This document shows, one piece after another, positions 39,565 through 64,000 of a stretch of 64,000 nt of DNA. The notes under the pieces are model-generated. The model was not told where the DNA came from. It worked only from the letters and a program-made list of their open reading frames with translations, and did no database searches. Each line of letters starts with the position of its first letter. Position 1 is the stretch's first letter. The position numbers and the translations under genes are program-made. This stretch comes from Candidatus Enterousia sp. (GTDB lineage Bacteria > Pseudomonadota > Alphaproteobacteria > Rs-D84): NCBI GenBank assembly GCA_045114635.1, contig JBGUKY010000022.1:4680-68679 (forward strand), in the 5' to 3' direction.

Positions 39565-40283
39565 ATAGCATGCACAACACGACAGAAAGAAACCGCGTAT
39601 ACGGCATCAGCACCGGCCTTGCGTAAAACACGGTTCAATTCATAAAATGTTGCACCAGACGTCATAACATCATCAACAAGTAAAATCTTTTTACCCCGAA
39701 TATTATCTAATTTTTTAACATCAAATACACCACGTATATTTTCACGTCTTTGTCTTGCCGTTTTGTGTCCCATATCGTTTCTATATTTACGCGAAACACT
39801 ATCAACATCCAGAACCGCATTAAAATGTTTTGCAATTGGACGCGCCAATAACGTGGCCTGATTATATCCGCGCTTAAACAATCTTTTATATGCAAGCGGT
39901 ACAGGCAAAACAACATCTATATCCAGATTCAAATCACGCAAACAATTTATCATAGAATTAGACATCAATGTCTGATATTTCAACATTGACGCATGTTTAA
40001 ACGGTAACATTATATTTTTAGAAACATCATCATATACACATGCTGACCTGATAAAATCTAAATCACATTCACCCGCAGCACAATGCGGACAAAGTGGTGT
40101 TGGTCCTAAATCAAGATCAGCAGGGAAAGGATATCCACACTTAAAACATTTTGGATTTGATATCCAATTAAAACGCGACCAACATTTTGCACATAATGTT
40201 CCATGTACATCAACAAAATCGCCGCATACGGGACATACTGGGGGATATATAAATTTTAATAAAGATTTAAACAAACTTACCAC
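39561..40283 (-). CDS. comF: ComF-family phosphoribosyltransferase-like protein
   Basis: N-terminal double zinc-ribbon (CPVCG...CAKCW...CFKCG...CPHC) and a PRTase motif ILLVDDVMTSGAT. Confidence 0.8.
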   Translation of the reverse strand: MVSLFKSLLKFIYPPVCPVCGDFVDVHGTLCAKCWSRFNWISNPKCFKCGYPFPADLDLGPTPLCPHCAAGECDLDFIRSACVYDDVSKNIMLPFKHASMLKYQTLMSNSMINCLRDLNLDIDVVLPVPLAYKRLFKRGYNQATLLARPIAKHFNAVLDVDSVSRKYRNDMGHKTARQRRENIRGVFDVKKLDNIRGKKILLVDDVMTSGATFYELNRVLRKAGADAVYAVSFCRVVHAI

Positions 40284-41506
40284 GACATACTTTTGTATGT
40301 TTTTGTAGACACTGTATCACCAAACATATTGCGTTTTTGCTGACGCAAAGATTCGAATACATCACCAGAAATTATACGCAAAACAAACACATCATCATCA
40401 CGTTGTGATAATACTGGAATAATACGTTGATCAGCAATACCTGTATCACGCAAAACCTGTTCTACTATGGCCAAACGTTTAGCGGCCAATTTACGAGAAT
40501 CTTTACTGTGTGTCACAGATTCTGGTATTGCGATTTGAATAGCACGCTTTGGATTATTTACAACAATAGATGCTGTTTCTGTCAAAATGTTATAATTTTC
40601 ACGAGATAAACCACTGTCGCCATTAAGGAAAGATATCTTTATTTCCATTGGGCGAACACCGCCTTCCATTTCAGACAAATCACGCGCCGCTGAAAAACCT
40701 TCGCTATCAAAAGACATATCACTGACAGTATCAAATCTGTCATCAACTTGATATGTTGATAAATGTTTATTTTCTGACAAATATGTCTTTTTAAACGCCT
40801 TTTTCAATTCGTTTGGCGACATCTTTGTCATATCGTTTTTAACAGACGCCATCTTTGGTTCTGCGACATTTGTTGCGCTACGATTTGCAATTTGTTTTTG
40901 TGTGTCCATTGAAACAACATTACGACGAACAGAAACAGCCTTTTCAGCATCAGGTTTTGTCATAACATTCGTGCTACCTGCAATAGGTGTACGCACAGTT
41001 ACAGGTCTTGCATTTGCCATTTGATTTTCCAATTCAGACAAACGCGCAACTTCTGCTCGCAATTGTTTTAATTCGTTCAATGCTTCATCACGAGAAACAC
41101 GATTTGAAACTGATTGCCCAGCGCTTGCAAGTTGGAAAGATTCAGAGTCCAAACTTTCTTCTGGCAACATCGCATCTGATCTTATAACAGCAATTTCATC
41201 CATACGTGGCATACGAAGTGGTGCATCTGTATTTCGCGCCCACAAATCAGAACTTGGACGATTTGGTTTTAAAACATCAGCGGCAACCGTTGGCGCCGTC
41301 ATTTTTGTAGCACTACGCGCAACAACTTTTCTTTCTGTTTTTGCAACAGGTGCAACCGCAACTGTTCTTTGCGAAACAATTTCTTCACCGAAAGCTGCAC
41401 GTGCAGACACATCTCCACGTGACACATCAACAACAGGCAAATACGCCGCATTTGCGCCACTTACAGTCATTAAACACAAAACAAAAATCGATGAAAAATA
41501 TTTCAT
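40277..41506 (-). CDS. secreted protein with coiled-coil and degenerate OmpA/MotB-like C-terminal domain
   Basis: Signal peptide (LCLMTVSGANA), a long low-complexity region, and a coiled coil (LNELKQLRAEVARLSELENQ). The C-terminus (IKISFLNGDSGLSRENYNILTE...RKLAAKRLAIVEQVLRDTGI) loosely follows the OmpA_C pattern. 7-nt overlap with comF. Confidence 0.55.
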   Translation of the reverse strand: MKYFSSIFVLCLMTVSGANAAYLPVVDVSRGDVSARAAFGEEIVSQRTVAVAPVAKTERKVVARSATKMTAPTVAADVLKPNRPSSDLWARNTDAPLRMPRMDEIAVIRSDAMLPEESLDSESFQLASAGQSVSNRVSRDEALNELKQLRAEVARLSELENQMANARPVTVRTPIAGSTNVMTKPDAEKAVSVRRNVVSMDTQKQIANRSATNVAEPKMASVKNDMTKMSPNELKKAFKKTYLSENKHLSTYQVDDRFDTVSDMSFDSEGFSAARDLSEMEGGVRPMEIKISFLNGDSGLSRENYNILTETASIVVNNPKRAIQIAIPESVTHSKDSRKLAAKRLAIVEQVLRDTGIADQRIIPVLSQRDDDVFVLRIISGDVFESLRQQKRNMFGDTVSTKTYKSMSW

Positions 41507-48729: not shown

Positions 48730-50022
48730 TTATTTTTTTATTGCTGACGCCCATTTTTTAAGGTTTTCCCACATTATATTTATGTCTTTTTTTGCTGTTT
48801 CATAGTATTTATCTGATATTTGTATCTTGAAAAGCATATTGGTCAATTGCGGGATCATAGTCATAAACATGGCAATAAACACACCCATTAACAAAAAGGT
48901 GATCATGTTATAATCCTGGAAAATCAAGCTGTCCATCAACATTTTCGAATCGTTACTTGCGATTGCTTGTTGTAAAACATTCGCGCCTGTCCACCCACCA
49001 AATGCAGCGTTAATAAACATAACAGAGAAACCCAAAAATACTACAGTCAAAGCAATTCCGACAACTGCTTTTATTACGTCGTCTATCATTTGGCGAATCG
49101 TTCTGCCACCTTTTGGAAACAAAGCAAAGTTTTCATCATCAAACATCCAAGACATCAACATCAACGGCAACATTACCAAATCCATAGATAATTTTATAAA
49201 AATTTCCAGGAAATACAGCGGTATTGGCAAAAGAGCGAAAAAATACAAAACCAATATTAAAATTCCACAAAATAAAATCGGAATATTTGGGAAAATTGGG
49301 ACATTTGCCAATATTTTGTGCATATAATCTGTATCAAATGCCATATTCATCATGGTCCAACCAACAGTCATACCCAAACCTGTCACTTGATGAACATTTG
49401 CAACCTCACATGCCAATTGGTGCCTTAGTTTTGGCGAAAAAGCACCATACGCTGATGCCTCTGATGATACAGACACAGGGTCAGCAAGCGCTGTTGCAAC
49501 CATACACTCTGAAAATTTATTATTATCAGATACGATATAATCAAAAGAAGTCCCTATTACCAATGCTGGTTCAATCAATACATTTGTTATCAAGCGCGGC
49601 AACGGCAACAATAACAAAACAATCAACACACCTAACCTGAAAATATGTGTTCCGAAATTACCCATTATTTTTGATACATTGTCCACTTTATTGTTCAGAG
49701 TTCCGTATAACAAATTCCAAGCAATAAAAATTGCTAATAATGTCGCAGACATAGGGATTATGACATGCGATAGCGCAGACCAAACCTTTGGCAACAAGTC
49801 TGACATAGAAATCATAACATCAGAAAAAATCTGACATGTCCAACATGATGTAAAGAAATCCAGTGCGTCTTTGATATTCACAGGCGCGGCTGTACGCCAT
49901 ATTGAAACTCCTATAATACCGACACCTACTGCGGCCCCACCCAAAACAAACGGGGCGACACCCCAAGATGACATTGGTAATAATGCTAAAAACCACAACC
50001 AAAACTTTTTTAATACTTTCAT
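48730..50022 (-). CDS. polytopic membrane protein, paralogue A of a five-member family (candidate VirB6/TrbL-like)
   Basis: 430 aa from ATG 50022 (MKVLKKFWLWFLALLP...). Many TM segments, SCWTCQIF motif, PRLITNVLIEPALV helix, Lys-rich tail WENLKKWASAIKK. The track start at 50100 is a GTG overlapping the divergent gene, so I disfavour it. Confidence 0.7.
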   Translation of the reverse strand: MKVLKKFWLWFLALLPMSSWGVAPFVLGGAAVGVGIIGVSIWRTAAPVNIKDALDFFTSCWTCQIFSDVMISMSDLLPKVWSALSHVIIPMSATLLAIFIAWNLLYGTLNNKVDNVSKIMGNFGTHIFRLGVLIVLLLLPLPRLITNVLIEPALVIGTSFDYIVSDNNKFSECMVATALADPVSVSSEASAYGAFSPKLRHQLACEVANVHQVTGLGMTVGWTMMNMAFDTDYMHKILANVPIFPNIPILFCGILILVLYFFALLPIPLYFLEIFIKLSMDLVMLPLMLMSWMFDDENFALFPKGGRTIRQMIDDVIKAVVGIALTVVFLGFSVMFINAAFGGWTGANVLQQAIASNDSKMLMDSLIFQDYNMITFLLMGVFIAMFMTMIPQLTNMLFKIQISDKYYETAKKDINIMWENLKKWASAIKK

Positions 50023-50029
50023 GATTTTA

Positions 50030-50038
50030 ATTATACCA
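50030..50038 (-). promoter_or_regulatory. extended -10 element (TGgTATAAT) on the minus strand, 7 nt upstream of the paralogue A ATG
   Basis: Minus strand reads TGGTATAAT-TAAAATC-ATG. If functional it would give a leaderless or near-leaderless mRNA. Confidence 0.3.
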
Positions 50039-50054
50039 CAAATTAAGATAAATG

Positions 50055-50063
50055 TGATATAAT
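50055..50063 (+). promoter_or_regulatory. extended -10 element (TGaTATAAT) for the four-gene paralogue B-E operon
   Basis: TGATATAAT at 50055-50063, 27 nt upstream of the ATG at 50091, with AAGAGAGA between them. Confidence 0.4.
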
Positions 50064-50090
50064 TCAATACATAAAAAATAAAAAGAGAGA

Positions 50091-51395
50091 ATGCACACAC
50101 AAAACACTGTGATATTGCGCTTGTTTAAGCATGCCCAAATGTTCTTTGGGGCGTTTGTTTTGTGCGCTTTTTTTACTAATTCTGCACACGCAGATATAAT
50201 CGACGCTTATAACCTTGCACCATTTGTTCCATTGGTTCTTGAAGAGATGATGAATATGGCAACATCTCTTTACAATTTCTTTGTCGGCAAAGGCGATGGA
50301 TTGATATATTTGTGCATTTATGCTTTTGTCGCTTTTTACATAGGGTTATATCTTGTCAAAATGCATTTACCAAAAGACTGGCTTTCATTTTTTGGTTTTT
50401 CAAATGGCGGTGAAATGTGGGAATCAAAAATTGACGTTTGGAAAATCACTGACAATGTTTTAAAACCTTGTATTCGTGCTATCGTGGCCGCTGTATTTTT
50501 ATTACAAATAAAACCAGTTTATGTAACAGAATGGTTGGTAAACCCATTCTTAGAATTCGGATCTATTTATACAGAACAGATTTTGAAAAACATAAATCAC
50601 TCTACATTATCCACCACAGATGCACCTGCTTGTCCTGCATCGATTGAAGAAAGCGGATGGATTTCAAAACGCAGTTGTGATTTTCTTGTTAAACCCGTCT
50701 ATGTAATTTCCCAAGAAAATAATAAAGTTATCAGATATGGTTTTAATTTTATAAAAACAGGTATTCGTGGCATGATGACATTGATACCACATGGCGGCGA
50801 AGATCTGTTAAACATAATAACAGGTATAATGCTATTGTTTGCTTTTATATCCGCAAATGTGTTTATGGCTCTGTTGATAATTGGTGCTATATTTGAATTC
50901 TGTCTGGCGCTTATCATGTATCCATTTAATGTATTGGGATGGGTCGCAAAAAAATCTGATCAATGGATGGATATTTGGCCCGCTTTCTCACAAATAATTA
51001 GTGCATTAAAAAATCTTATTATCACTATGATCGCTTGCGCTTTCATATTATGCGTAAACATCGCTATTGTTCACGCACTATTTAATTGGTCTTCATCTGT
51101 ATTCGTTGTTGCTGCGGGCGGCGTTTCTACAAGCAACGTTCCTTCTATTACAAACAGTGCGATGAATTTTGGGCAACACTCTATTTTGTGGTTATCAGCA
51201 TTATTGACATTCTTTTTGATGCAAAACATATTCAACACGACACGTGATAGATTAGATAAGGTGTACACGAAAGATACACCTAAAGATTTGTACAATAATG
51301 TAACAAACGATGTACAAACCTTGTGGAAAAAAATAAAAGCAACACCAGAAACAATAAAAAATATTGTATCTGCAGCAGAAAAAGCGAAGAAGTAA
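50091..51395 (+). CDS. polytopic membrane protein, paralogue B (signal peptide subtype; candidate VirB6/TrbL-like)
   Basis: 434 aa. Signal peptide ending SAHA, FVPL motif, YVTEWLVNPFLEF helix, IMYPFNVLGWVAKKSDQW core, Lys-rich tail. AAGAGAGA SD-like sequence upstream. Confidence 0.75.
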   Translation: MHTQNTVILRLFKHAQMFFGAFVLCAFFTNSAHADIIDAYNLAPFVPLVLEEMMNMATSLYNFFVGKGDGLIYLCIYAFVAFYIGLYLVKMHLPKDWLSFFGFSNGGEMWESKIDVWKITDNVLKPCIRAIVAAVFLLQIKPVYVTEWLVNPFLEFGSIYTEQILKNINHSTLSTTDAPACPASIEESGWISKRSCDFLVKPVYVISQENNKVIRYGFNFIKTGIRGMMTLIPHGGEDLLNIITGIMLLFAFISANVFMALLIIGAIFEFCLALIMYPFNVLGWVAKKSDQWMDIWPAFSQIISALKNLIITMIACAFILCVNIAIVHALFNWSSSVFVVAAGGVSTSNVPSITNSAMNFGQHSILWLSALLTFFLMQNIFNTTRDRLDKVYTKDTPKDLYNNVTNDVQTLWKKIKATPETIKNIVSAAEKAKK

Positions 51396-51398
51396 AAA

Positions 51399-52586
51399 AT
51401 GCAAGAATTGGCAAACTCTTTAATAGACAGCGGCATACAATGTTGGACATGTCCTATATTTGATACCTTGTTTGCCATAGTTTCTAATACTGCGGCGGCC
51501 GCATATCAACGCCTTTGTCTTTTCAGTGTTGTTATATTTGGTGTACTGTTTGCTTTTTATTGTCTTAACATTGTATGGCAAAACATAAAAAACGGTGCAA
51601 AAGATTCATTTTTTGATAAAACTTTGCGCCCAGTGCTAATAAAATCTTTAATAGCAATTAGTATATTGGGTATGGGCTTGGTCGTTCCAAGATTTATTTC
51701 CACAATAACGTTTGAACCAGTAGCCGTCGTAACTCTACAATACACAAAAATGCTTGTGCCACCTGATTATTCAATCCCCGCATATGAAAATGCTATTAAA
51801 CTTGGGGAAAATGGATTTTTTAATCCTGAATTGCGTGATACAATCATACAAATTTTAGAAACATCTATTGCTAATTTCCAAGTGTATATAAAAATTGGAA
51901 TCGCAATAATAAATGAAGCATTCACCATAAAAGCATTACATGGAATTGGTTCACTTATAAAACACATCATTATTTGTTTCATCGGCATATTCTTGACATA
52001 TAACTTTGTAAAATTGTTTATTAAATATTCTTTCTGTTTCATGGATGTTATCTTTGCAATGGCTATGTTCGCATTCTTTTTCCCATTATCTGTTGTGTTG
52101 TTCATATTCCGCGATGCAAAAGATGCTCCCGATTGGCTGAAAGGACTCGGTTCCAAATTGGGCGGCGGACAAATTAAAAAATTGATCAATGCAATTGCAT
52201 CTATGTCTGCTTCTATTTTGACATATACTGTTATCATGTTAATTATTCGTGGATTTCTTGATGCAAATGGTGTCAGTGCAGATTCTGTACAAAACACATA
52301 TGAATCTTTGTTCGATTTTGATTTAGAAAATTCAAGCGCTATGCAAATTACTTTTGCTGGCGCAATAGTATTAGTTTATGTTGTAAATTATATCGCAGGG
52401 AAAATACCACAAGTTACAGAAAAAATATTAGATGCATTTAATATCAAACAAGAAAACGAATTATCTGAATCGATGGGCAAGGATGCACTACAATTAACAC
52501 AAATAGTTTTTGATAAAACAAAAGAATTAGCAAAGACAATTATTAATCCAAAAGACACTAAAACCGAAGAAAAGAAAGAAAAATGA
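51399..52586 (+). CDS. polytopic membrane protein, paralogue C (CWxC subtype; candidate VirB6/TrbL-like)
   Basis: 395 aa. QCWTCPIF motif, PRFISTITFEPVAV helix, FFFPLSVVLFIFRDAKDAPDWLKG core, KTEEKKEK tail. 3-nt gap after paralogue B. Confidence 0.75.
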   Translation: MQELANSLIDSGIQCWTCPIFDTLFAIVSNTAAAAYQRLCLFSVVIFGVLFAFYCLNIVWQNIKNGAKDSFFDKTLRPVLIKSLIAISILGMGLVVPRFISTITFEPVAVVTLQYTKMLVPPDYSIPAYENAIKLGENGFFNPELRDTIIQILETSIANFQVYIKIGIAIINEAFTIKALHGIGSLIKHIIICFIGIFLTYNFVKLFIKYSFCFMDVIFAMAMFAFFFPLSVVLFIFRDAKDAPDWLKGLGSKLGGGQIKKLINAIASMSASILTYTVIMLIIRGFLDANGVSADSVQNTYESLFDFDLENSSAMQITFAGAIVLVYVVNYIAGKIPQVTEKILDAFNIKQENELSESMGKDALQLTQIVFDKTKELAKTIINPKDTKTEEKKEK

Positions 52587-54037
52587 TAAAAAAGTGGTTG
52601 ATAGAAACAGGCTTAAAACTTTTAATCGGCGCAATAGCGTTAGGTGTCGGCATTTGGTATTTAAGCAGTTCTATTGGGGGCGCATCACTTTCTTATACAA
52701 GCCTTGATAATTTTATGCAACAAATAGGTACTCAAAACGGGGATCTTTCTTCGATCAACGGATGTTTTTTGTGTGTATATCTTGCTGAATTGTTCGCGGT
52801 CATAGGACGCGCTACAGAATTATTATGGTCAGGTATCGTACATCATTTATGGATACTTATGGCTGTGGGCTTTGGTATATTCATAGTATTTCACACATTG
52901 ACATTTATCAGAGAACAATCAACATCAAAAGATATAAAAGATTTAACAGATAAAGAAGTTAAACTTGATTTCAAAAAATGGTTTGAAAAAGTTTGGAAAA
53001 CCGGAATCCGTGTATTGATTGCTGGCGCATTAATCGGCGCATTAAATTGGGGCGGAACAAACACATTGAAAACTGTTTCAAATGTTATTGTTACACCCGT
53101 CACATATCTTGGTACAACATTCGCAACGATTGCAACAGGTGTTATAAATGGTGCAAAATGTGAAATACCAGAATACAGCAACAAAGCAGAAGATATTTTA
53201 ATTCCTGTATCTCATCCTTTGATGTGTGCAATCGGAAATCTGAATACAGTAATGTTGGCTGGTGCAGGTGGTGGTTTTGCTTTGATGAATTATGCATGGC
53301 TTGATTTGAATGATCGTGCTGGTGGTGTATTTACTTGGCTCGCAGGTCTTGCGCTCGTGATAATGTTCCTTGTTATCGGATTTGATTTGTTGTTCAAAAT
53401 ATTGAGTGTATTCTTTAAACTTGTATTTATTATTATCTTTATGCCTCTTTTGATTGCAGCGGCAGCTTTTGAACAAGTATGGGGATTGGCCAAAGGATTG
53501 TTTGATAACGCAGTAAAAATGCTTATTACTTCTGCAGTAAGTATATTAAAGATATGCTTAAAAATAGTTGTTATCTATGCTGTTGTATATTTTGCAGCAG
53601 ACACATTTTATCCTGGCCCAGAAGATGGATTCACAAGCATATTACCACCAATGGTTTCAAATATAAAATCGGAAAACATGGATGCTAAAACAATGTCTGT
53701 AATAAATGTATTTTCTACATGTGAAAAAGTGGCTTTGATTGATGGTAAAATGGACAAAGATAAATTCACTACATGTTTTAAGACACAAAAAAATATTGTT
53801 GAAAAAAAGTATCCTGATGCATTTGATTTTATGGATGATGGATTTGACTTTTTGTTATTTATGATTGGTGTATTCTTGTTATACTTTTGGATTGTTTCGC
53901 CAGAAATTGATAAAATATTTGGCAAAGAAGACAAAGAAACATTCGATTACGGCGGATGGCTTAAAGATTTTGGAAAGTCAGTATATGATGCACCAATGAA
54001 AATATTCCAGGCAGTTCATGATAAATCAAAAAAGTAA
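52583..54037 (+). CDS. polytopic membrane protein, paralogue D (CxxC subtype; candidate VirB6/TrbL-like)
   Basis: 484 aa. GCFLCVYL motif, NVIVTPVTYL helix, IIFMPLLIAAAAFEQVWGLAKG core, VHDKSKK tail. ATGA overlap with paralogue C. Confidence 0.75.
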   Translation: MIKKWLIETGLKLLIGAIALGVGIWYLSSSIGGASLSYTSLDNFMQQIGTQNGDLSSINGCFLCVYLAELFAVIGRATELLWSGIVHHLWILMAVGFGIFIVFHTLTFIREQSTSKDIKDLTDKEVKLDFKKWFEKVWKTGIRVLIAGALIGALNWGGTNTLKTVSNVIVTPVTYLGTTFATIATGVINGAKCEIPEYSNKAEDILIPVSHPLMCAIGNLNTVMLAGAGGGFALMNYAWLDLNDRAGGVFTWLAGLALVIMFLVIGFDLLFKILSVFFKLVFIIIFMPLLIAAAAFEQVWGLAKGLFDNAVKMLITSAVSILKICLKIVVIYAVVYFAADTFYPGPEDGFTSILPPMVSNIKSENMDAKTMSVINVFSTCEKVALIDGKMDKDKFTTCFKTQKNIVEKKYPDAFDFMDDGFDFLLFMIGVFLLYFWIVSPEIDKIFGKEDKETFDYGGWLKDFGKSVYDAPMKIFQAVHDKSKK

Positions 54038-54048
54038 AGGGACAAAGA

Positions 54049-55332
54049 ATGCAGATTCGTAAAATTTTAAAACATTTGTTTATTTGTATTTTTTGTGCAA
54101 CTTGTTTTGTTGGCTCGTCTTATGCCGCTGGCAACATACCACATGGTGATATTGGCGAATACGGCAACTGGATAACCACCGACAACATGGCAAAATACAA
54201 AGATAATTTGTCTGGGGATGTTGAAAGTTTCCAACAAACATTTCAAACGAATTTACATTCTACAAATTTTGTCCCGCTAGAAGTTAAACTTGGCCTTTCT
54301 TTTATGAAAGCACTATCTGCTATTGATAAAGTATTACAAATATCACTTGTACGTTTTACAATAATATTCCTTTTCATAATGTATGCTTTTTGGATTGGAT
54401 TGGAAGCATACAGATTGATTCGTGACACGGGTGATTACAAGAAAGCTTTATACGATATATTTATCAATGGGATAAAGATTGCAGCATGGGTTATTGTATT
54501 AAATTATGGCCCTGCAAAATTATTCACAATACTTATAACACCAATACTTGCACTTAGTATAAGTTTATCTGATTTTATATTAAACGCTGTTGCACAATCA
54601 TACAATGTTGTTATTCCAGATACATGCGCAACAATACATCAATATGTTGATGCAAATACAACAGGACAACTTTTGATAGGTTCTGATGCAGCCGCTAACA
54701 TTATGTGTTTGCCTGCACGTCTTTCAGTATATTTTTATCATGCCACCGCAAGTGCTTTTGAATGGATGGTCAATGGGCTCAAGAATAATCTGACTATGTT
54801 TATTACTGGCGCAGTATGTGTTGTTATGTTCATTGGTTGTATATTCAAATATGCATTTATGACTCTTGGGGTTGTGGTCAACTTATTCTTAACTCTTTTG
54901 ATGTTACCTTTTACTGCTGTCGCTGAATCTTTACCAAAAACAAAAGAAACAAATTATGCAGGACAAATCTTTTCTGGATTTTTGGGACTATTCAAGACCA
55001 AGAAATTATCTGATGTAATATCTGTATTCATAGATGCCGCTATTTATTTTGTATCACTTTCTATTGTCATATCCATATGTGCTGCATTGCTAACCAATAT
55101 AATATCTATTACAGGACAAAATACTTATCATGTTGGATCTGCTATGACAAGTATATTATGCGCAGGTATAATATTTTACTTCGCAAATCAGGCAGACAAA
55201 TTGGCAAAAGACATTGGTGGCAAAATAGACAATTCATTTGGTGAACTTTTACAGAAAGATACAAAACAACTTTGGACTGACACAAAAAATCTCGGCGGAA
55301 AAATATTCAAAGCTTGGGCGAACAAAAAATAA
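54049..55332 (+). CDS. polytopic membrane protein, paralogue E (signal peptide subtype; candidate VirB6/TrbL-like)
   Basis: 427 aa. Signal peptide (VGSSYA), FVPL motif, FTILITPILAL helix, LLMLPFTAVAESLP core, KIFKAWANKK tail. AAGGGA SD upstream. Confidence 0.75.
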   Translation: MQIRKILKHLFICIFCATCFVGSSYAAGNIPHGDIGEYGNWITTDNMAKYKDNLSGDVESFQQTFQTNLHSTNFVPLEVKLGLSFMKALSAIDKVLQISLVRFTIIFLFIMYAFWIGLEAYRLIRDTGDYKKALYDIFINGIKIAAWVIVLNYGPAKLFTILITPILALSISLSDFILNAVAQSYNVVIPDTCATIHQYVDANTTGQLLIGSDAAANIMCLPARLSVYFYHATASAFEWMVNGLKNNLTMFITGAVCVVMFIGCIFKYAFMTLGVVVNLFLTLLMLPFTAVAESLPKTKETNYAGQIFSGFLGLFKTKKLSDVISVFIDAAIYFVSLSIVISICAALLTNIISITGQNTYHVGSAMTSILCAGIIFYFANQADKLAKDIGGKIDNSFGELLQKDTKQLWTDTKNLGGKIFKAWANKK

Positions 55333-57485: not shown

Positions 57486-58172
57486 ATGGGTCGAATAATT
57501 TGCTTTGATATTGAAACAACTGGCTTTGAATACATGCGTGGCGACCGCTGTATTGAAATCGGCGCGGTTGAATTGATAGATGGCAAATTAACAGACAACA
57601 CTTTCCATGAATACATAAATCCCGAAGGGAAAATAATCCCACCAGAAACATATATGGTGCATAAAATATCGAACGCCTTTTTGGAAGACAAACCAAAAAT
57701 GTCTGAAATCGCACCAAAGTTTTTAGAATTCATAGGCGATGCACAAATTGTTGCCCATAATGGTTTGGACTTTGACTTCCCGTTTATAAATTACGAATTA
57801 GAAAAGTTGAATCTAAAACCTATTCCACGTTCACAAATGTTGGACAGTATTGTTATCGCACGCAATCGTGTATATGGCCCCAAAAGTTATACTCTTGATG
57901 CTTTGGCAAAATGGTTTGGTGTATCATTGACCGCGCGTGCTGATGCGCACGGTGCGTTGATTGACGCGGAAATTTTGGCACATGTTTATAACGAACTTGA
58001 AAATACAGCACCAGCGATTGATGTAAAAGAATTAGTTGAAAAACAACATGATGCATTTTTAAAGACACCTAAAATTGGCTCCGATTTTCCAAAGCGCAAA
58101 TTCGAAGTTCCTGCTGACGAACTTGAAACACATAATCAATTTATGGAAAAATTATTAGCAGAAGAAAATTAA
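57486..58172 (+). CDS. dnaQ: DNA polymerase III epsilon subunit (DEDDh 3'-5' exonuclease)
   Basis: Exo I ICFDIETTG, Exo II VAHNGLDFDFPF, Exo III HGALIDAEILAHVY. AAGGAAGGG SD upstream. Confidence 0.9.
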   Translation: MGRIICFDIETTGFEYMRGDRCIEIGAVELIDGKLTDNTFHEYINPEGKIIPPETYMVHKISNAFLEDKPKMSEIAPKFLEFIGDAQIVAHNGLDFDFPFINYELEKLNLKPIPRSQMLDSIVIARNRVYGPKSYTLDALAKWFGVSLTARADAHGALIDAEILAHVYNELENTAPAIDVKELVEKQHDAFLKTPKIGSDFPKRKFEVPADELETHNQFMEKLLAEEN

Positions 58173-58202
58173 AAAAATCGGACACATTGTCCGATTTTTT
58201 AT
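58171..58202. terminator. bidirectional intrinsic terminator (dnaQ / Cys-rich protein gene)
   Basis: AAAAAATCGGACA-CAT-TGTCCGATTTTTT. Confidence 0.8.
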
Positions 58203-60502
58203 TATTCACACATACTGTGTTCAAGTTCACCTTGGGTGCCACCGGCAGGCACGGTACCTTCTTCACAAGATCTGCATATACCAGCATCTGTACGATATTG
58301 ATTGCTTGAACAAGATATTACACAAGCACCGTTCCAAACAGAATATCCTGATTTACATTTGCAACGATCATTTGCAAGCCCAGAGATAGTTCTATTAATA
58401 TCAGTGCTATTATATTCAACACATACATTGTTTTCATATGTTTTACATGTTTTTTCATTATAAAATTCTGAATTATCTGGACAAAGCAAAGATTGATAAA
58501 ACATTTCTGAAATACCATTTATCAATTTCATTTGTCTTTTATATTCTGCGTTTGATTCTGTATCTGATATAGCAGATATAGCATCACCCATTTCTTTATC
58601 ATATGCGAACACAGCGTAACCACAAGTCAATGCAACATTATAACAAGCACCTGTCATAACCTTGTAAATATTTTCAATTGATGCAGAAGATGTCCACGAA
58701 GTAATTTGTGTATTTTGTTGATTATAACAATCACGAACATCACTCATACAACTTGATGCATAATCAGAAATAATTTTTGATTGAGCGGCTTTGATATTCA
58801 CCATCGCACGCTGTACATAATTTACAACCACATCATTGTATGGATCATATGTTGATTTTTTTCCAGATTGAATATATGTATAATCCTGGCATTTATCCAA
58901 CACAGCACGGCAAAGTCCACCTTCCTTCACTGTTGCGCCTGTTCCAATTTTCTGCATTAAATAATTAACGATACAAGCACCATCGTGTCCACTGCATAAA
59001 GCATCACTAGAAGAATTTTTAATAAAATCTCCATTTATTTTTGTGTTGCTGTAACTGTTTTCTGCAATGGCATCTGGGTCATTCAAGAAAGCAGTTATGT
59101 TCGCGATATTTTGTCCCAACACAACATTACCATTTTCATCAATATATTTTTTCGTTGGATCCAAACATTTCACATAACCTTCGCCACAAACCATATCGTC
59201 CAACATACATTTTTCAAGTGCGCCAACACATTCTTTGATATCATATTCGTTTTTATTTTGTAAAACAGCCAAACGTGCTTTCTGCAACATTAAATTTGCA
59301 CTGCGCACATTGTTAGTTAATGTCTGATTTAATTTGACCAAACCTTGTTCATATGCGACGCAATCTTTATCGATAGCTAAATCATAATTACCAGAAATCT
59401 GATCTTCTGTACCGCCTGCATCTTTACAACGATCTAACACTGTTTTACAACGTTTTTTTGCTTCGTTATAAAGTGCCTTACCACGTTTAGATGAAATATC
59501 ATTACTTGATGAAGAACCAAACATATCAAGCGAAAACATATCAGATGAATCAGATGAAAAATCAAAATCCATATCCAACAAAGAATCTGATGTTGATGAT
59601 GAAGTCAAAGTCGTAGACGAAGTTGGATCTTTGATCATATCAGCAATATCGTCAAGCATAGAACGTGTTTGGGTATTATCTTTCGTTTTACCCATTTCTA
59701 ATTCAGCTTCGGTTGCGGACATAATTGCACGAATTTCATCTGCAGATAAACCAACATAACGAATTCTTTGTGCAACATCATTTAATTCAACATTTGCATC
59801 TTCGACCGCCTTTTGTGCCTTGGCGTATTTAGCCAAGTTAGCAGAACAAGAACATCTTTTTTGATTAGTATCTACAACAGAACAAAATTGATCCATACAT
59901 TCGTTGTACTGTTGTTGACAAGTAGAATTTAAATCAGAAGTCTTTTCTAAAATATCTTTTGCTTCGGCCAAAGATTCAGCAGTCACAAGTTTTTGTTGTT
60001 TTTGTGAACCGAATATTGATGCACGTGATTGAACACCACGAACCTGTTCATCAATATTAGATCCTGTTTGAAGACCTGTATTTCCAATTGTTGCACGTCC
60101 GCCAACTTCGGCAGTAGATGCACGCAAAACAATTCCTGCACGACGTGCAGCCGCAGTACTATTTATGCTTGCAGCTTCTGTTCTGGCACTACGACCAACA
60201 GTATTCACACCATCTTCCAATGTTGCACGTTGACTATTTGGTCGCACATTAACAGAACGCGATACAACATTGCCAGATTGTTTTTGTGACCCACGTGATG
60301 CAACATCAACTTTTTTTGCATTTGACACTGTTCTTGAAATATTCGAACTGGAACGATTTCTTGCAACGTTTTTTTCGGTTGATTGTTCAACCTTTTCAGA
60401 AGAATTTTTTGTTGGAATTGTACGGGATATAGAACCATCCGCCGCAAAAGCATTTGCAACGCCAAACACAGTTATGAAAAAACATAACAAAAATCTTCTC
60501 AT
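58202..60502 (-). CDS. large secreted Cys-rich modular protein (766 aa), unknown family
   Basis: Signal peptide (VFGVANAFA). Basic Ser/Arg/Asn-rich Cys-free region (~aa 21-190), a Cys-rich helical region, a Ser/Asp-rich linker, and a C-terminal EGF/furin-like Cys pattern (CKCKSGYSVWNGACVISCSSNQYRTDAGICRSCEEG). AAAGGAA SD upstream; terminators on both sides. Confidence 0.75.
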   Translation of the reverse strand: MRRFLLCFFITVFGVANAFAADGSISRTIPTKNSSEKVEQSTEKNVARNRSSSNISRTVSNAKKVDVASRGSQKQSGNVVSRSVNVRPNSQRATLEDGVNTVGRSARTEAASINSTAAARRAGIVLRASTAEVGGRATIGNTGLQTGSNIDEQVRGVQSRASIFGSQKQQKLVTAESLAEAKDILEKTSDLNSTCQQQYNECMDQFCSVVDTNQKRCSCSANLAKYAKAQKAVEDANVELNDVAQRIRYVGLSADEIRAIMSATEAELEMGKTKDNTQTRSMLDDIADMIKDPTSSTTLTSSSTSDSLLDMDFDFSSDSSDMFSLDMFGSSSSNDISSKRGKALYNEAKKRCKTVLDRCKDAGGTEDQISGNYDLAIDKDCVAYEQGLVKLNQTLTNNVRSANLMLQKARLAVLQNKNEYDIKECVGALEKCMLDDMVCGEGYVKCLDPTKKYIDENGNVVLGQNIANITAFLNDPDAIAENSYSNTKINGDFIKNSSSDALCSGHDGACIVNYLMQKIGTGATVKEGGLCRAVLDKCQDYTYIQSGKKSTYDPYNDVVVNYVQRAMVNIKAAQSKIISDYASSCMSDVRDCYNQQNTQITSWTSSASIENIYKVMTGACYNVALTCGYAVFAYDKEMGDAISAISDTESNAEYKRQMKLINGISEMFYQSLLCPDNSEFYNEKTCKTYENNVCVEYNSTDINRTISGLANDRCKCKSGYSVWNGACVISCSSNQYRTDAGICRSCEEGTVPAGGTQGELEHSMCE
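59492..59626 (-). repeat. Ser/Asp/Thr-rich low-complexity coding tract
   Basis: Encodes TSSTTLTSSSTSDSLLDMDFDFSSDSSDMFSLDMFGSSSSN in the 766-aa protein. Confidence 0.8.
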
Positions 60503-60552
60503 TTCCTTTCGTTAATTATATCACAAAAACAGGTTAAAAAAAAGCAGATTCA

Positions 60553-60581
60553 TAAAAAAACACCGCCCAAAAGGGCGGTGA
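60553..60581 (-). terminator. intrinsic terminator after rpmA
   Basis: CACCGCCC-AAAA-GGGCGGTG with a T run on the minus strand. Confidence 0.8.
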
Positions 60582-60602
60582 AAATAACAAAATAATTGCG
60601 TA

Positions 60603-60869
60603 TTATTTTGATTCGGTATCAGGAACCACAGAAACTGTTTTTCTGTCGCCGTTGCCACGTTTGAATGTGACGATACCTGCGATTTTTGCGAACAGTGTAT
60701 GATCTTTACCCATACCAACATTCAATCCTGGGTGAACCGCAGTTCCACGTTGACGAATGATGATATTGCCTGGGATAACGTGGGCACCGCCACTTTTCTT
60801 TACACCCAATCTGCGTCCGGCTGAATCGCGTCCGTTTGTTGATGCGGAACCCGCTTTCTTATGTGCCAT
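60603..60869 (-). CDS. rpmA: 50S ribosomal protein L27
   Basis: [24 protein letters not shown]... is canonical L27. Confidence 0.95.
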
Positions 60870-60895
60870 AATTAAACTCCTTCGTTTGTGGACTC

Positions 60896-61195
60896 TTAGG
60901 CCTTGATTGATTTAATTTTCAAAACAGTGATGTACTGACGATGACCGGCAGTTCTACGATAGTTTTGACGACGTTTTTTCTTGAATACCAAAACCTTGTC
61001 ATCACGTTTTTGTTCAATAACATCAGCAACAACAGTTGCGCCAGCCAACAAAGGTGTGCCAACTTTGTCACCAACCATTAATACTTGGTCGAAAGTGACC
61101 GAACCAGTAGCATCAAGTTTTTCAACTTTGATAATATCGCCCTCTTGAACGCGATATTGTTTTCCACCAGTCTGAAAGATTGCAAATGTAGCCAT
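60896..61195 (-). CDS. rplU: 50S ribosomal protein L21
   Basis: [20 protein letters not shown]... is canonical L21. A near-consensus promoter lies upstream. Confidence 0.95.
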
Positions 61196-61259
61196 TATAC
61201 TTTCTCTTTTGTTTTGTTTGTTAACTTAAAATTATGCTTTCGCACAAAATTTTATGCAA

Positions 61260-61287
61260 ATTATACCTACAAAATACCAAAAGTCAA
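61260..61287 (-). promoter_or_regulatory. near-consensus sigma70 promoter for rplU-rpmA
   Basis: Minus strand reads TTGACT, 16-nt spacer, TATAAT, about 60 nt upstream of the rplU ATG. Confidence 0.55.
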
Positions 61288-61328
61288 CAATTTTGTCTAA
61301 AAAATTATGCAAATCATATTAACCAGCG

Positions 61329-61353
61329 CAAAAAAACACCGCCGAAGCGGTGA
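61329..61353 (-). terminator. intrinsic terminator after the 61361..63814 gene
   Basis: CACCGC-CGAA-GCGGTG with a T run on the minus strand. Confidence 0.75.
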
Positions 61354-61360
61354 AAAACAA

Positions 61361-63814
61361 TTATTTATCTCTAAGCTTATATTCCGATTCTCTTATTTCT
61401 TTATCAAGTTGGACTGTAGCTGCATTATATTTTCTTAACCATGTTTTACATTCTTCTATGCCACTAGGTTCAACATTGCACGTTGCATCTGCCCCCGTCC
61501 CTTTACAATCATTTATTTGCTTTGTAAGAAAATCGTTTGCTGTATTAATTCCCAATTTCAACTCAGCCTTAGCGTACCTATCACATTTCTTATTATCAAT
61601 TTGTGTTCTCAAAGTGTTATAATTTTCGCGCAAACAGTCCAGTGTTCCCTGCATAGTTTTACCAGAACAATCACGATATCGGGATGCTTTTGAACTGCTA
61701 CTTCCCAATAATCCCGAAGACGAATCATCATCTTTTGCGCCGGCGGCTTCTAATGTAGCTGTCAACGTAGCCTTTTCAAGTTGTGTCTTTAATCTGCGCA
61801 ATGTAGCAGAAAGGTATTCATATTGTTTATACATCTGCTGTGAAACGACAGTTGTTTTCAAACCAATTATTTCCTTCATATCACCAAACATTTCTTTTTG
61901 ATGAGAATCATAATCCTGCTTTTTATTTTTATAATTGTCTGACTTTGCATCCCAACCTTCTTCTCGTTTTATACAACCTTCGTCTGTCGGTTCATAATTT
62001 TCTTTACAGAATCTAACTTTACATGTTATTCCGCCACTTTGACTTGAATCTGCCCAAACTATTTTATCCAATCCTTTTGTAATTTTGGCATTTGCTTGGT
62101 CCTTGTATTCGCCTTTTGTCGCCTTTGTTGTACAATTATATTTGTCTGTTTTTACACTTTCTGATGCATTATCTTTTCCAACGTTATACAAATGCGTATC
62201 GCAGATCGCAAAGATTGGACTTACATAGCCACATTCTTCTTTTTCTTCGGCCATAAAGTCAGATTTATTCATACCTGCTTTTATATCTTTCACACACAAA
62301 GGATAATTATTAACCCCTTGTGCCGACTTGCTTAATGTCGCCTTTTCCAGCACATCAACATACTCTGAAGCATCACAATAAGCTATCAATTCTTTGGCTT
62401 CTCTGCCTTTTGTTTTTCTTGGTTCGTTTTGATTTAACCACACATCTAATTTATCAATATCGACAAGACCGGCACCATTTTTATTTTTTGTTCTGCGTCT
62501 GAACAACGCCGACGAATCCAGCGCACCTGATGCACACGCAACCACAGTTCCATTTGATGTGCTGTCCACTGTTGGATTTACCCAACCTTCATAAACCTCA
62601 TCTTCACTGCTTAATACTTTTAATAATGTACAAGGTTTACAACTGGACTTTATCTTGTCGTTCATACAGTTTTCAAGCACACGTGATGAATCTGCTTTTT
62701 TGTCCATATATGCAGCAGCAAGCACAGATGAACAAGCGGACATTTTATCAAATTCTGACATTTCTGCAGGACAAGAATATGGCGTACCATTATTGCCAAC
62801 ATATTCTATTTTTGCACCTCTTTCGCACATATATTGTCCCCAACGATTACATGAATTATTTAACATCATGTAAATATCAGACAGATTTACACCAACCAAC
62901 TGTGCCAATTCCAATGCATCATAAACTTTATCAATTGTGTTATCATATGGGGTTAAAAATTCTGTTGCCAATTCACGCCATTTTTTAATACGTTTTGGCC
63001 CTTCGCAATTATTACCGCGTGCATCACATTTTGCATATTCAAACGCAGCATTCATTACTGTTTTAACTTCTTTCAACGACACTTCGGCATTTTCAAGTTC
63101 GGTCATAATTTGGCCAGTAATTTTTTGACGTTCCAAAACATCAGCAGAGATGCCACGATTTATCGCATCTTGTTGATATGCCGATACGCCAGCTTCGTTT
63201 TCTTTTGCAGCATCAGTTGCCGCCGTTTTCATGTTTTCAAGTGCAGCAGCAGATTGGGCAGCCTGTTGTGCAAGTGCAGCCTGAAGTTGTTGTTGCGATT
63301 CAGCCTGTTGTTGTGCCATCTGGGCTTGCATTTGCTGCATCTGATATTGCATTTCTTGCATTTGTTGTTGCGATTGCTGTGCAGCCGCTTGCGCTGCAGC
63401 CTGTTGTGCCGCCGCATTTTGTTCGTTTATTTTGGCATTAGAACTCGCTACCAATTGGGCAGACATATATTCTTCCAAATCTGCGCCATATTGTTTACAT
63501 GATGAATTAGATTGAACACAACCTTTTACTATAGCAGAAGCCACAAAATAATCAGAACAACCACCGTTACTACATTTTGGTTGCGCACAACGCAAAATCA
63601 AAGCATTACAGTTTCCAAAGTCAACCTTGGCCGTCGCATTATTGCCATCATAACGACCGTTTGACATCATTGCCCATTGATTATTATTCGCATTGCTTGG
63701 ATTATATGCGGTCAAATTAGATCCCGCAGTTGTCGCAACAGGACTAGCCGCCGATGCAAACGCAACCGGCGCAAAACATAGCATTATTGTTAAAATGCGC
63801 GATAAATTATTCAT
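61361..63814 (-). CDS. large secreted Cys-rich modular protein (about 817 aa), distant paralogue of 58202..60502
   Basis: Signal peptide from ATG 63814 (MNNLSRILTIMLCFAPVAFASA). Cys cluster (FGNCNALILRCAQPKCSNGGCSDY), a long Gln/Ala coiled-coil tract, many paired Cys, and a GSSSS-containing linker followed by a C-x-LDC module as in the other protein. Confidence 0.75.
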   Translation of the reverse strand: MNNLSRILTIMLCFAPVAFASAASPVATTAGSNLTAYNPSNANNNQWAMMSNGRYDGNNATAKVDFGNCNALILRCAQPKCSNGGCSDYFVASAIVKGCVQSNSSCKQYGADLEEYMSAQLVASSNAKINEQNAAAQQAAAQAAAQQSQQQMQEMQYQMQQMQAQMAQQQAESQQQLQAALAQQAAQSAAALENMKTAATDAAKENEAGVSAYQQDAINRGISADVLERQKITGQIMTELENAEVSLKEVKTVMNAAFEYAKCDARGNNCEGPKRIKKWRELATEFLTPYDNTIDKVYDALELAQLVGVNLSDIYMMLNNSCNRWGQYMCERGAKIEYVGNNGTPYSCPAEMSEFDKMSACSSVLAAAYMDKKADSSRVLENCMNDKIKSSCKPCTLLKVLSSEDEVYEGWVNPTVDSTSNGTVVACASGALDSSALFRRRTKNKNGAGLVDIDKLDVWLNQNEPRKTKGREAKELIAYCDASEYVDVLEKATLSKSAQGVNNYPLCVKDIKAGMNKSDFMAEEKEECGYVSPIFAICDTHLYNVGKDNASESVKTDKYNCTTKATKGEYKDQANAKITKGLDKIVWADSSQSGGITCKVRFCKENYEPTDEGCIKREEGWDAKSDNYKNKKQDYDSHQKEMFGDMKEIIGLKTTVVSQQMYKQYEYLSATLRRLKTQLEKATLTATLEAAGAKDDDSSSGLLGSSSSKASRYRDCSGKTMQGTLDCLRENYNTLRTQIDNKKCDRYAKAELKLGINTANDFLTKQINDCKGTGADATCNVEPSGIEECKTWLRKYNAATVQLDKEIRESEYKLRDK
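63239..63427 (-). repeat. Gln/Ala-rich (CAG/CAA/GCx) low-complexity coding tract
   Basis: Encodes NEQNAAAQQAAAQAAAQQSQQQMQEMQYQMQQMQAQMAQQQAESQQQLQAALAQQAAQSAA. It generates spurious antisense ORFs. Confidence 0.85.
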
Positions 63815-63888
63815 CTCTCTTGGGTATAATTTTATCATAAAAAACATTTTGTGTAAAGAGTCAAGATTGTGTTTTTATATTTTTATTC

Positions 63889-63916
63889 AATAAAAAAAAC
63901 CGCCCAAACGGGCGGT
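63889..63916 (-). terminator. intrinsic terminator after the right-edge partial ORF
   Basis: ACCGCCC-AAAC-GGGCGGT with a T run on the minus strand. Confidence 0.75.
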
Positions 63917-63920
63917 CATA

Positions 63921-64000
63921 TTAATTACCTGTTGTCTGCTGCGTTGTCTTTTTCCAACTACGCAAACAGCCACCTTCGTCAGAATATCTTGCACCATCAC
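63921..64000 (-). CDS. 3' end of an ORF entering from the right window edge (unknown)
   Basis: The minus-strand frame is open from the edge to TAA (complement of 63921-63923), reading ...DGARYSDEGGCLRSWKKTTQQTTGN*. An intrinsic terminator follows. Confidence 0.3.
   Translation of the reverse strand, partial: DGARYSDEGGCLRSWKKTTQQTTGN

Follow-up and report, generated by a model that had tools for sequence, protein, structure and literature searches.

Two apparently unrelated families of cysteine-rich proteins with Sec signal peptides beside the rplU-rpmA operon of Candidatus Enterousia

Introduction

In Candidatus Enterousia sp. (order Rs-D84), the ribosomal protein genes rplU and rpmA are flanked on either side by a gene for a large, cysteine-rich protein with a signal peptide; we refer to the two proteins as P0001 and P0002. 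The question raised by this locus is whether the two proteins are related to each other and which role they might have in the envelope or at the surface of such a bacterium. We analysed a stretch of 64,000 nucleotides (C22:4680-68679, contig JBGUKY010000022.1; hereafter the window), which is part of a genome of 873 kb in 22 contigs with a G+C content of about 36%. The order is widespread in the guts of ruminants, horses and humans, and the homologues and related loci considered here come from metagenome-assembled genomes (MAGs) of rumen, horse, sheep, yak and human gut. Bacteria of this lineage have genomes of less than 1 Mb, are fermentative and anaerobic, have no respiratory chains and are probably dependent on other cells (PMC12306168).

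A preliminary description of the locus had presented P0001 and P0002 as exported, disulfide-stabilised proteins that could not be assigned to a named family, which share modules and result from paralogous expansion. The first part agrees with the results reported here; the second does not. P0001 and P0002 appear to be structural proteins of the envelope or surface that are exported via Sec and represent two unrelated, undescribed families. For their role we give about an even chance to surface display, in which disulfide-stapled stalks with variable heads would face outward and contact partner cells, host mucus or particles.

Results

P0001 and P0002 appear to represent two unrelated families

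The genes on the minus strand are arranged in the order 742-amino-acid (aa) gene, which exceeds the end of the window, P0002, rplU, rpmA and P0001 (Table 1). As described previously, P0001 and P0002 are two separate minus-strand genes for proteins of 766 and about 817 aa, each with its own terminator, on which the open reading frames (ORFs), the hairpins and the start of the orthologues agree. Because the orthologues of P0002 begin at the equivalent of M12 (MNNLSR, 63814), we regard the protein as one of 817 aa and not of 828 aa; the promoter-like site ahead of this start falls within the first 11 codons of the longest ORF. A TGaTATAAT sequence is located only 12 nt 5' of the ATG of P0001. Both genes look monocistronic, and P0001 may be transcribed either from a promoter of its own or by read-through from the strong promoter of rplU.

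By their sequence, both N-termini look like Sec signal peptides with AFA at the end, in line with the signal peptides noted earlier. The RR of the P0001 signal peptide is replaced by RK, KK or KR in orthologues, which argues for Sec rather than Tat, and Tat export was considered unlikely on this ground. The cysteine within the P0002 signal peptide lies in the h-region, with leucine as the -1 residue, and does not fit a lipobox; it is present in 97% of the orthologues and thus not invariant. Neither a lipobox nor a barrel was found in P0001 or P0002 by reading of the signal peptides and by the Pfam scan, again in line with the preliminary description.

The two proteins could not be related to each other. 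BLASTP of P0001 against P0002 gave E values of at least 11, a hidden Markov model (HMM) built from all 11 members of the P0001 family did not match P0002 at E ≤ 10, and hhalign aligned only the signal peptides, with a probability of 2.4% and 4.4% for shallow and deep profiles, respectively. The modules which had been thought to be shared are thus not supported. The same applies to the proposed common GSSSS linker, which is of low complexity and not conserved in P0001 orthologues, and the cysteine spacings that accompany it differ (C-x6-C versus C-x10-C). P0001 and P0002 have in common only a short motif, C-x6-C-x4-C, with which their cysteine-bearing parts begin. It is present in 30 copies across the cysteine-rich families of the genome compared to 9.2 in shuffled sequences; it therefore looks like a design that is used repeatedly and is no proof of homology. 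When the genome was searched with the N-tract and the tail of P0001 or with the N-segment, the coil and the C-module of P0002, only the query itself matched. The assumed paralogous expansion of P0001 and P0002 was likewise not borne out: the true local paralogue of P0001 is a third gene, which is located directly upstream of P0002 and extends past the window end.

Cysteine-rich exported proteins which are unrelated to both families (G000:C21:5711-8902, C7:8247-9527 and C4:41710-42963) repeat a C-x6-C-x4-C-x6-8-C unit (e.g. CQTVALSCVKSMCGKDYESC), which suggests that the four-cysteine unit is a common structural staple across families.

Pfam searches with P0001 and P0002 at E ≤ 1 yielded only chance or low-complexity matches, and NCBIfam searches only weak matches far below the family cut-offs; Pfam and NCBIfam searches with the orthologues and all paralogues also resulted in chance or low-complexity matches only. 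No relative was detected in profile searches of the PDB with either protein, and a literature search, including the terms Rs-D84 and cysteine-rich, did not reveal any mention of the two families. Two clusters of P0001 orthologues (P0052 and P0079) bear the precomputed Pfam tag PF27023.1, which could not be named and had no match in the literature; a recent Pfam release may include a model that touches the P0001 family.

Table 1 Features of the P0001/P0002 locus, with positions in the window.
Feature	Position	Strand	Basis
P0001 gene, 766 aa, exported Cys-rich protein of an order-wide multigene family	58202..60502	-	ORF and translation, paralogues, homologue clusters
P0001 signal peptide, aa 1-20, MRRFLLCFFITVFGVANAFA-A	60443..60502	-	read from sequence; ends ANAFA-A
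P0001 Cys-free basic Ser/Thr/Arg/Asn-rich N-tract, aa 21-174	59981..60442	-	composition, pLDDT < 50, conservation profile
P0001 putative Cys-stapled helical core, aa 175-673, eight C-x6-C pairs, helices of up to 52 residues	58484..59980	-	AF2, Cys conservation, C-x6-C enrichment
Acidic Ser/Asp-rich disordered linker in the P0001 core, aa 293-334	59501..59626	-	pLDDT < 50 in both AF2 models
P0001 variable C-terminal tail, aa 674-766: insertion hot spot and one Cys-knot beta-hairpin unit (CKCxxGYxVWxGxC...)	58205..58483	-	orthologue identity and indels, AF2
P0002 gene, 817 aa from conserved MNNLSR start, exported Cys-rich protein of a single-copy family	61361..63814	-	ORF reaches 63847 (828 aa)
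P0002 signal peptide, MNNLSRILTIMLCFAPVAFA-S	63755..63814	-	read from sequence; ends AFA
P0002 conserved N-segment and first Cys cluster (C-x6-C-x4-C-x4-C, then C-x6-C)	63488..63754	-	invariant columns in 119 orthologues, motif count
P0002 Gln/Ala-rich predicted coiled coil, aa 141-205	63233..63427	-	sequence; low-complexity TFIIA match only
P0002 conserved core, aa 206-345	62813..63232	-	identity 0.72-0.82 per 20-aa block
P0002 mosaic middle, aa 346-544: conserved blocks split by hypervariable Cys-bearing inserts	62216..62812	-	conservation profile
P0002 C-module, aa 545-828: variable insert, conserved helix (EIIGLKTTV..LEAAGAK), Ser/Gly linker, C-terminal cassette	61364..62215	-	conservation, split ORFs
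rpmA (L27)	60603..60869	-	PF01016 in syntenic locus
rplU (L21)	60896..61195	-	PF00829 in syntenic locus
3' end of the 742-aa P0001 paralogue (G000:C22:68600-70828)	63921..64000	-	homology; syntenic gene in loci L010 and L012
Two-way terminator-like hairpin, P0001 / convergent dnaQ	58172..58200	.	sequence
Terminator-like hairpin 3' of rpmA, about 58 nt ahead of the P0001 ATG	60561..60580	-	sequence
Terminator-like hairpin 3' of P0002	61337..61352	-	sequence
Terminator-like hairpin 3' of the upstream P0001 paralogue	63898..63917	-	sequence
Promoter-like site TTGACT-16-TATAAT (11/12) ahead of rplU	61260..61287	-	sequence
Promoter-like site TTTACA-17-TAAAAT with TG, ahead of the P0002 MNNLSR start	63829..63857	-	sequence
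pLDDT, predicted local distance difference test; AF2, AlphaFold2.

One family is multigenic throughout the order, the other is single-copy

A search for further paralogues, which had been suggested before, identified 10 for P0001 in the 0.87-Mb genome (11 members; HMM search), including the one directly upstream of P0002, and showed that P0002 is single-copy. The 11 copies of this one exported family account for about 3% of the genome, to which further cysteine-rich families add. Of the 61 genomes of the order, 57 were matched by the P0001-family profile; the number of matched pieces per genome was 13-18 within the family of Enterousia and 1-10 in the other families. Among 150 sampled alphaproteobacterial genera it matched the own genus only, the other 149 being without a match. 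The P0002 family occurs as a single copy in each of the 32 genomes sampled from the GTDB family of Enterousia, whereas the 29 genomes from other families of the order lack it.

More than 1375 homologue clusters were found for P0001, and its family covers 1021 clusters at 50% identity in a library of 1.8 billion proteins; more than 1000 homologue clusters belong to the P0002 family. We also considered that the ORFs are non-functional or misannotated. The frames are intact, P0001 orthologues occur in 301 species representatives, each family has more than 1000 clusters with many invariant residues, both genes have their own terminators and P0002 is preceded by a promoter-like site, so that this explanation is highly unlikely.

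Compared to the locus of another Enterousia contig (L010), identity amounts to 73% for P0001, 68% for the upstream paralogue and 59% for P0002, next to 82% for UvrD, 90% for DnaQ and 72-81% for the VirB6 paralogues. The share of about 3% of the genome and a conservation about equal to that of the secretion machinery would therefore make these proteins central to the contact of the cell with its surroundings.

Counted over 80 species representatives, the P0001 orthologue is followed by dnaQ/uvrD in about 57 and directly preceded by rpmA in 40, and a P0002 orthologue is located upstream of rplU in about 19-21, all of which are closer relatives. From this we conclude that the linkage of P0001 is old and that the adjacency of P0002, and with it the bracketing of the operon, is specific to a clade. 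The previously assumed insertion on both sides of rplU-rpmA thus holds as a long-standing linkage on the P0001 side; on the P0002 side it does not extend beyond this clade. Elsewhere in the genome, the P0001 paralogues are scattered singly among housekeeping genes (11 neighbourhoods compared).

A rearranged order is found in G202 (C1:240636-247765), in which a P0001-family member is followed by rplU-rpmA and a P0002-like gene, with a partial second rplU copy (71 aa matched) 3 kb upstream. Two clear Enterousia-type loci with a P0001 orthologue, rplU, rpmA, dnaQ and uvrD (L070 and L092) are deposited under the titles 'Bacteroides fragilis' and 'Muribaculaceae' (a 716-kb chromosome), and are probably mislabelled MAGs.

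The mature cysteines are very probably paired in disulfides

P0001 and P0002 both contain 31 cysteines, 30 of which remain in the mature protein, and the closely spaced pairs noted earlier are enriched over shuffled sequences. In P0001, 9 gaps are exactly C-x6-C, about 9-fold more than the shuffle mean of 1.07 and a number reached in none of 5000 shuffles, and 15 gaps span 2-10 residues. The corresponding values for P0002 are 14 gaps of 2-10 residues compared to 8.1 expected (p = 0.007) and 3 C-x6-C gaps (p = 0.06).

An even number of mature cysteines was counted in each of the 115 P0002 orthologues that could be scored, with a range of 22-34, and in 113 of 119 P0001 orthologues and 135 of 146 P0001-family representatives; some of the odd-count exceptions in the latter family may be fragments. 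In an alignment of 111 sequences of the P0001 family, 16 of the P0001 cysteines are present in 98-100%, eleven of them in every sequence. C432 and C531 occur together in 44 of these sequences and are jointly missing from 67, and neither was ever found singly. They are the inner members of the C-x6-C pairs C425/C432 and C531/C538, which are located about 100 residues apart. This coupling argues that the C-x6-C pairs are not bonded internally and instead staple helix to helix. Co-occurring cysteines were also found in P0002 (C572/C625, r = 0.98; C755/C800, r = 0.93). On the basis of parity and co-occurrence we infer that all mature cysteines of P0001 and P0002 are, with near certainty, disulfide-paired and that the bonds would form after export, within the molecule; the even counts by themselves point to pairing and would not separate intramolecular from intermolecular bonds.

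Alternatively, the cysteine clusters (C-x6-C-x4-C-xn-C) could coordinate zinc or Fe-S clusters instead of forming disulfides. This would be consistent with the recurrence of four-cysteine units in several families of the genome and with the anaerobic habitat (PMC12306168) of an order in which DsbB was not found, VKOR being missing from this genome. The cysteines are, however, gained and lost in twos, and counts such as 22, 26, 30 and 34, none of them divisible by four, speak against Cys4 metal sites; the Sec export of unfolded chains is ill-suited to Fe-S proteins; and C432 and C531 lie far apart in the chain on different helices, as structural staples do. We therefore consider a metal-binding or redox function highly improbable.

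The P0001 core is predicted to be an elongated helical bundle

A usable AF2 model was obtained for residues 165-766 of P0001 from an alignment of 110 diverse family representatives (pLDDT 81.5; predicted template modelling score 0.66; 290 residues at ≥ 90); a model built from only 27 orthologues was of low quality, with a pLDDT of 56.8. Long helices are modelled at residues 175-207, 223-247, 366-417, 557-603 and 652-673, with lengths of 33-52 residues where they are longest, shorter cysteine-bearing helices lie in between, and the acidic linker is disordered at residues 296-330. The eight C-x6-C pairs are mostly located inside predicted helices. The model is thus a confident prediction of an elongated helical bundle or rod with a new fold. 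In this bundle, C-x6-C pairs on neighbouring helices, e.g. C425/C432 with C531/C538, would staple the helices to each other and make the structure rigid.

Foldseek searches with this model against PDB and BFVD gave nothing below E = 0.2; the best matches were spectrin repeats (TM score 0.15-0.25) and phage fibres, with TM scores of at most about 0.3. The C-terminal end is modelled as beta-hairpins with a pLDDT of about 88-91, for which Foldseek found factor Xa EGF domains only at E values of about 6-7. An EGF/furin-like C-terminus, as proposed in the preliminary description, is therefore plausible with regard to the modelled hairpins but is not matched by any family, the best Pfam match of the tail unit being TNFR_ELAPOR1_6th at E = 0.049, below the cut-off.

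Conserved cores are combined with hypervariable inserts and tails

The Cys-free basic N-tract and the Ser/Asp linker of P0001 and the Gln/Ala tract of P0002, all reported earlier, were recovered. The P0001 N-tract has a net charge of +10, a serine and threonine content of 24% and a pLDDT below 50; its residues 41-95 are variable, and residues 100-160 are highly conserved among orthologues (RRAGIxLRASTAEVGGRATIG...). Per block of 20 aa, the identity of P0001 orthologues is 0.7-0.96 over the core, 0.25-0.36 at aa 41-80 and about 0.5 at aa 461-500. It falls to 0.17 at aa 641-660 and 0.02 at aa 681-700, and is 0.3-0.5 in the tail, with indels. Orthologues carry one to several copies of CKCxxGYxVWxGxC as well as unrelated insertions. 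All P0001 paralogues also retain an N-tract that lacks cysteines and is rich in Ser/Thr, with a length of 37-206 aa and a net charge between 0 and +23; in those of full length, the body that follows bears cysteines and is acidic (net charge -19 to -37). One paralogue (G000:C7:70409-72565, minus strand) ends in a glycine-zipper-like hydrophobic segment (AAGGLSAGASAGTMINAGWGTAIGGVVGAVGAGVLGAMSGG) and is the sole family member of the genome with a possible membrane anchor.

Relatives with 40-61% identity to P0001 across the entire core differ widely in the length of what follows it, from 19 to about 1250 aa. Four long family members (1701-1845 aa) carry PF09479 Listeria-Bacteroides repeats with E values down to 7e-41, and two of these also contain several CxxCxxGxY units; other members of 2100-2300 aa have further cysteine-rich arrays. 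Repeats of this kind are typical of cell-surface proteins. In P0001, P0002 and the paralogues of this genome, PF09479 was absent above the gathering score.

A comparable mosaic is seen in P0002. Its C-terminal cassette occurs in two deeply divergent classes, for which we counted at least 17 switches on the tree of the conserved core compared to about 37 for shuffled labels; this suggests that the classes were exchanged between lineages, and tree error may inflate the switch count. In another species, the last about 285 residues of P0002 correspond to a separate secreted protein of 256 aa, whose gene is directly downstream of the gene for the N-module. In this locus (L014 3125-6082, minus strand; G158:C1), which is away from rplU, the N-module protein has 728 aa and a different cysteine-rich tail and its gene abuts that of the C-module protein. 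In the majority of the genomes sampled from the genus, the C-module lies in a separate open frame of 238-284 aa, and the fused form is a minority state. Since the two halves are encoded by separate adjacent genes in other species, they probably act together as a complex.

These observations also bear on the possibility that P0001 and P0002 are periplasmic scaffolds, i.e. a disulfide cross-linked lattice or struts that would stiffen the envelope of a cell with a reduced genome in the manner of the chlamydial cysteine-rich outer-membrane complex, with variable regions that would be no more than unconstrained loops. A Sec signal without a further sorting feature, the high conservation and core-gene-like distribution, long helices and a coiled coil of a size that spans the periplasm, and the lack of a linked outer-membrane exporter would all be compatible with such a location. 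However, the periplasm would hardly accommodate tails that vary between 19 and about 1250 aa and include PF09479 repeats and Cys-knot arrays, the mosaic of P0002 C-terminal classes looks like diversifying exchange, and peptidoglycan synthesis genes are present, also in the window, so that a substitute is not obviously needed. A periplasmic scaffold is therefore a doubtful alternative, albeit the first one to be considered.

Surface display as the likeliest role

A role at the surface or in contact with a partner, which had been suggested before, agrees with the way in which conserved cores alternate with hypervariable inserts and tails. In the mechanism that we propose, the invariant stalk of P0001 would be preceded by a basic, disordered N-terminal tether and followed by a hypervariable C-terminal head, which would consist of one Cys-knot hairpin unit in P0001 and of long Cys-knot and Listeria-Bacteroides arrays in relatives. 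P0002 would be built on the same principle, with a cysteine cluster, a Gln/Ala coiled coil, cysteine-stapled conserved blocks, variable inserts and an allelic C-terminal module. The most likely function would be the display of variable binding modules for attachment to partner cells, host mucus or particles.

Several observations weigh against this interpretation. A lipobox, a barrel, a transmembrane segment and any known sorting signal are all missing, and a Sec substrate would therefore be periplasmic by default. No outer-membrane export route is linked to the P0001 and P0002 genes; an orphan secretin operon lies elsewhere. No recurring partner family was found in the neighbourhoods of the 11 P0001-family genes, which thus give no functional hint. 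PF09479 repeats were detected in only 4 of the 150 best P0001-family representatives and not in P0001, and the helix-to-helix pairing scheme of P0001 draws on one co-occurring pair plus spacing. Finally, disulfide formation would be hard to account for, because DsbB was absent from 26 of 26 genomes covering 10 genera of the order, VKOR was absent from the Enterousia genome and the lineage is anaerobic without a respiratory chain. The proposed search for DsbA and DsbB accordingly gave a divided result: the only disulfide-oxidoreductase candidate found is a DsbA-like protein of 273 aa (G000:C2:50758-51579, minus strand; Thioredoxin_4, CPYC) with an N-terminal membrane domain, and DsbB was not found.

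The proteins might also be released as effectors or toxins, which would be oxidised in the periplasm, leave the cell via a type IV secretion system (T4SS) or a secretin, as pertussis toxin does via Ptl, and act on partner or host cells. A dispersed VirB-type T4SS is indeed encoded, with VirB10 at 54-2462 and five VirB6-like genes at 48730-55332, as is a secretin, and the variable C-termini resemble the architecture of polymorphic effectors. On the other hand, neither an enzymatic nor a toxin domain was detected in the members that were scanned, and the paralogues are not followed by a small gene of the immunity type. Conservation is highest in the large stalk and not in a delivery domain of a known type, and the linkage to the VirB6 array exists only through housekeeping genes. 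A release as effectors is thus improbable.

Taking surface display one step further, Rs-D84 may have evolved a modular display system of its own, in which a twin C-x6-C stalk of a new fold, a basic tether and exchangeable heads would form an attachment organ of an episymbiotic or parasitic lifestyle, with an oxidation independent of DsbB and quinones in a strict fermenter; we regard this wider proposal as speculative and, as a whole, unlikely. The two families offer a fold without a solved relative and concrete candidates for an apparatus of attachment to partners or hosts, and they pose a biochemical puzzle, i.e. putatively disulfide-paired exported proteins in a lineage without DsbB or quinones and a genome without VKOR. 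They are also possible antigens or markers with which these uncultured bacteria could be enriched or visualised.

Comparison with known cysteine-rich and multigene surface proteins

The chlamydial proteins OmcB, OmcA and MOMP resemble P0001 in several respects: a large cysteine-rich envelope protein is exported via Sec in an obligately dependent bacterium, has a basic N-region and owes its rigidity to disulfides. The basic N-region of OmcB is an adhesin that binds glycosaminoglycans. There is, however, no relation in sequence or fold, as OmcB is rich in beta-structure and P0001 is modelled as a helical bundle, and the P0001 family differs in its 11 paralogues with variable tails. The OmcB family models (Chlam_OMP6, DUF11 repeats) did not match P0001 or P0002 (Pfam, E ≤ 1).

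Twin CxnC proteins of the mitochondrial intermembrane space (CHCH; Cx9C/Cx3C) consist of two helices with a C-xn-C each, which are stapled antiparallel by two disulfides, a geometry that the C425/C432-C531/C538 arrangement deduced from co-occurrence would fit. P0001 differs by a spacing of x6, many staples in one exported bacterial protein of 500 residues and the lack of homology, and the oxidation machinery is a different one (DsbA-like in Enterousia, no Mia40). Similarly, the Hcp proteins of Helicobacter are secreted helical-repeat proteins in which regularly spaced cysteine pairs bridge helices. These, however, are 36-residue Sel1 repeats with C-x7-C, and the helices of P0001 are long and non-repetitive; Sel1 (PF08238) had no match in P0001, P0002 or the paralogues, and the C-x6-C spacing is not periodic at 36 residues.

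Stalk-and-head adhesins and variant surface proteins, such as the CxxC-containing variant surface proteins of Giardia and PF09479 proteins, share with the P0001 family a conserved stalk and a variable distal part built from repeats, and P0001 relatives carry true PF09479 repeats and CxxCxxGxY arrays. P0001 itself is unlike them in having a single Cys-knot unit, no PF09479 and no membrane anchor, barrel, sortase signal or type IX secretion signal, and the fold of its stalk is without a solved relative. The expanded surface-protein families of other reduced-genome bacteria (Chlamydia Pmp, Rickettsia Sca and Anaplasma Msp2/P44) resemble the P0001 family, which is likewise multigenic, combines conserved with hypervariable regions and occupies about 3% of a genome of less than 1 Mb. 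They rely on autotransporter or porin barrels, whereas none is present in the P0001 family: Pfam matched no autotransporter barrel or two-partner secretion domain in P0001, P0002 or the paralogues, and P0001 ends in a small Cys-knot unit.

Neighbouring genes and further observations

Past P0001 follow a convergent dnaQ, uvrD and then the five VirB6-like genes. The VirB10/TrbI homologue on the plus strand of the window has 802 aa, with the TrbI domain at aa 376-587 and a C-terminal extension of about 215 aa. Its cysteine-dense tail had been noticed before and was confirmed: 7 cysteines are located in the last 45 residues (CDDGSAPDMNGCCAGETYTDMGDQGFNCCPDSGGDC), in a pattern unlike that of the C-x6-C families.

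The orphan secretin (547 aa, PF00263; G000:C8:32994-34637) lies among unannotated signal-peptide proteins (G000:C8:27884-35592, minus strand), with no ATPase or pilin nearby, and is a possible outer-membrane conduit. The genome further contains four giant ORFs of 1692-3962 aa with 54-146 cysteines each (G000:C20:10860-20111, C10:37-11925, C18:14837-22996 and C11:15894-20972). Within the window, an ORF of 409 aa (40277-41506, minus strand) without a Pfam match at E ≤ 0.001 is located in a cell-wall cluster between murG and a gene for a ComF-like phosphoribosyltransferase.

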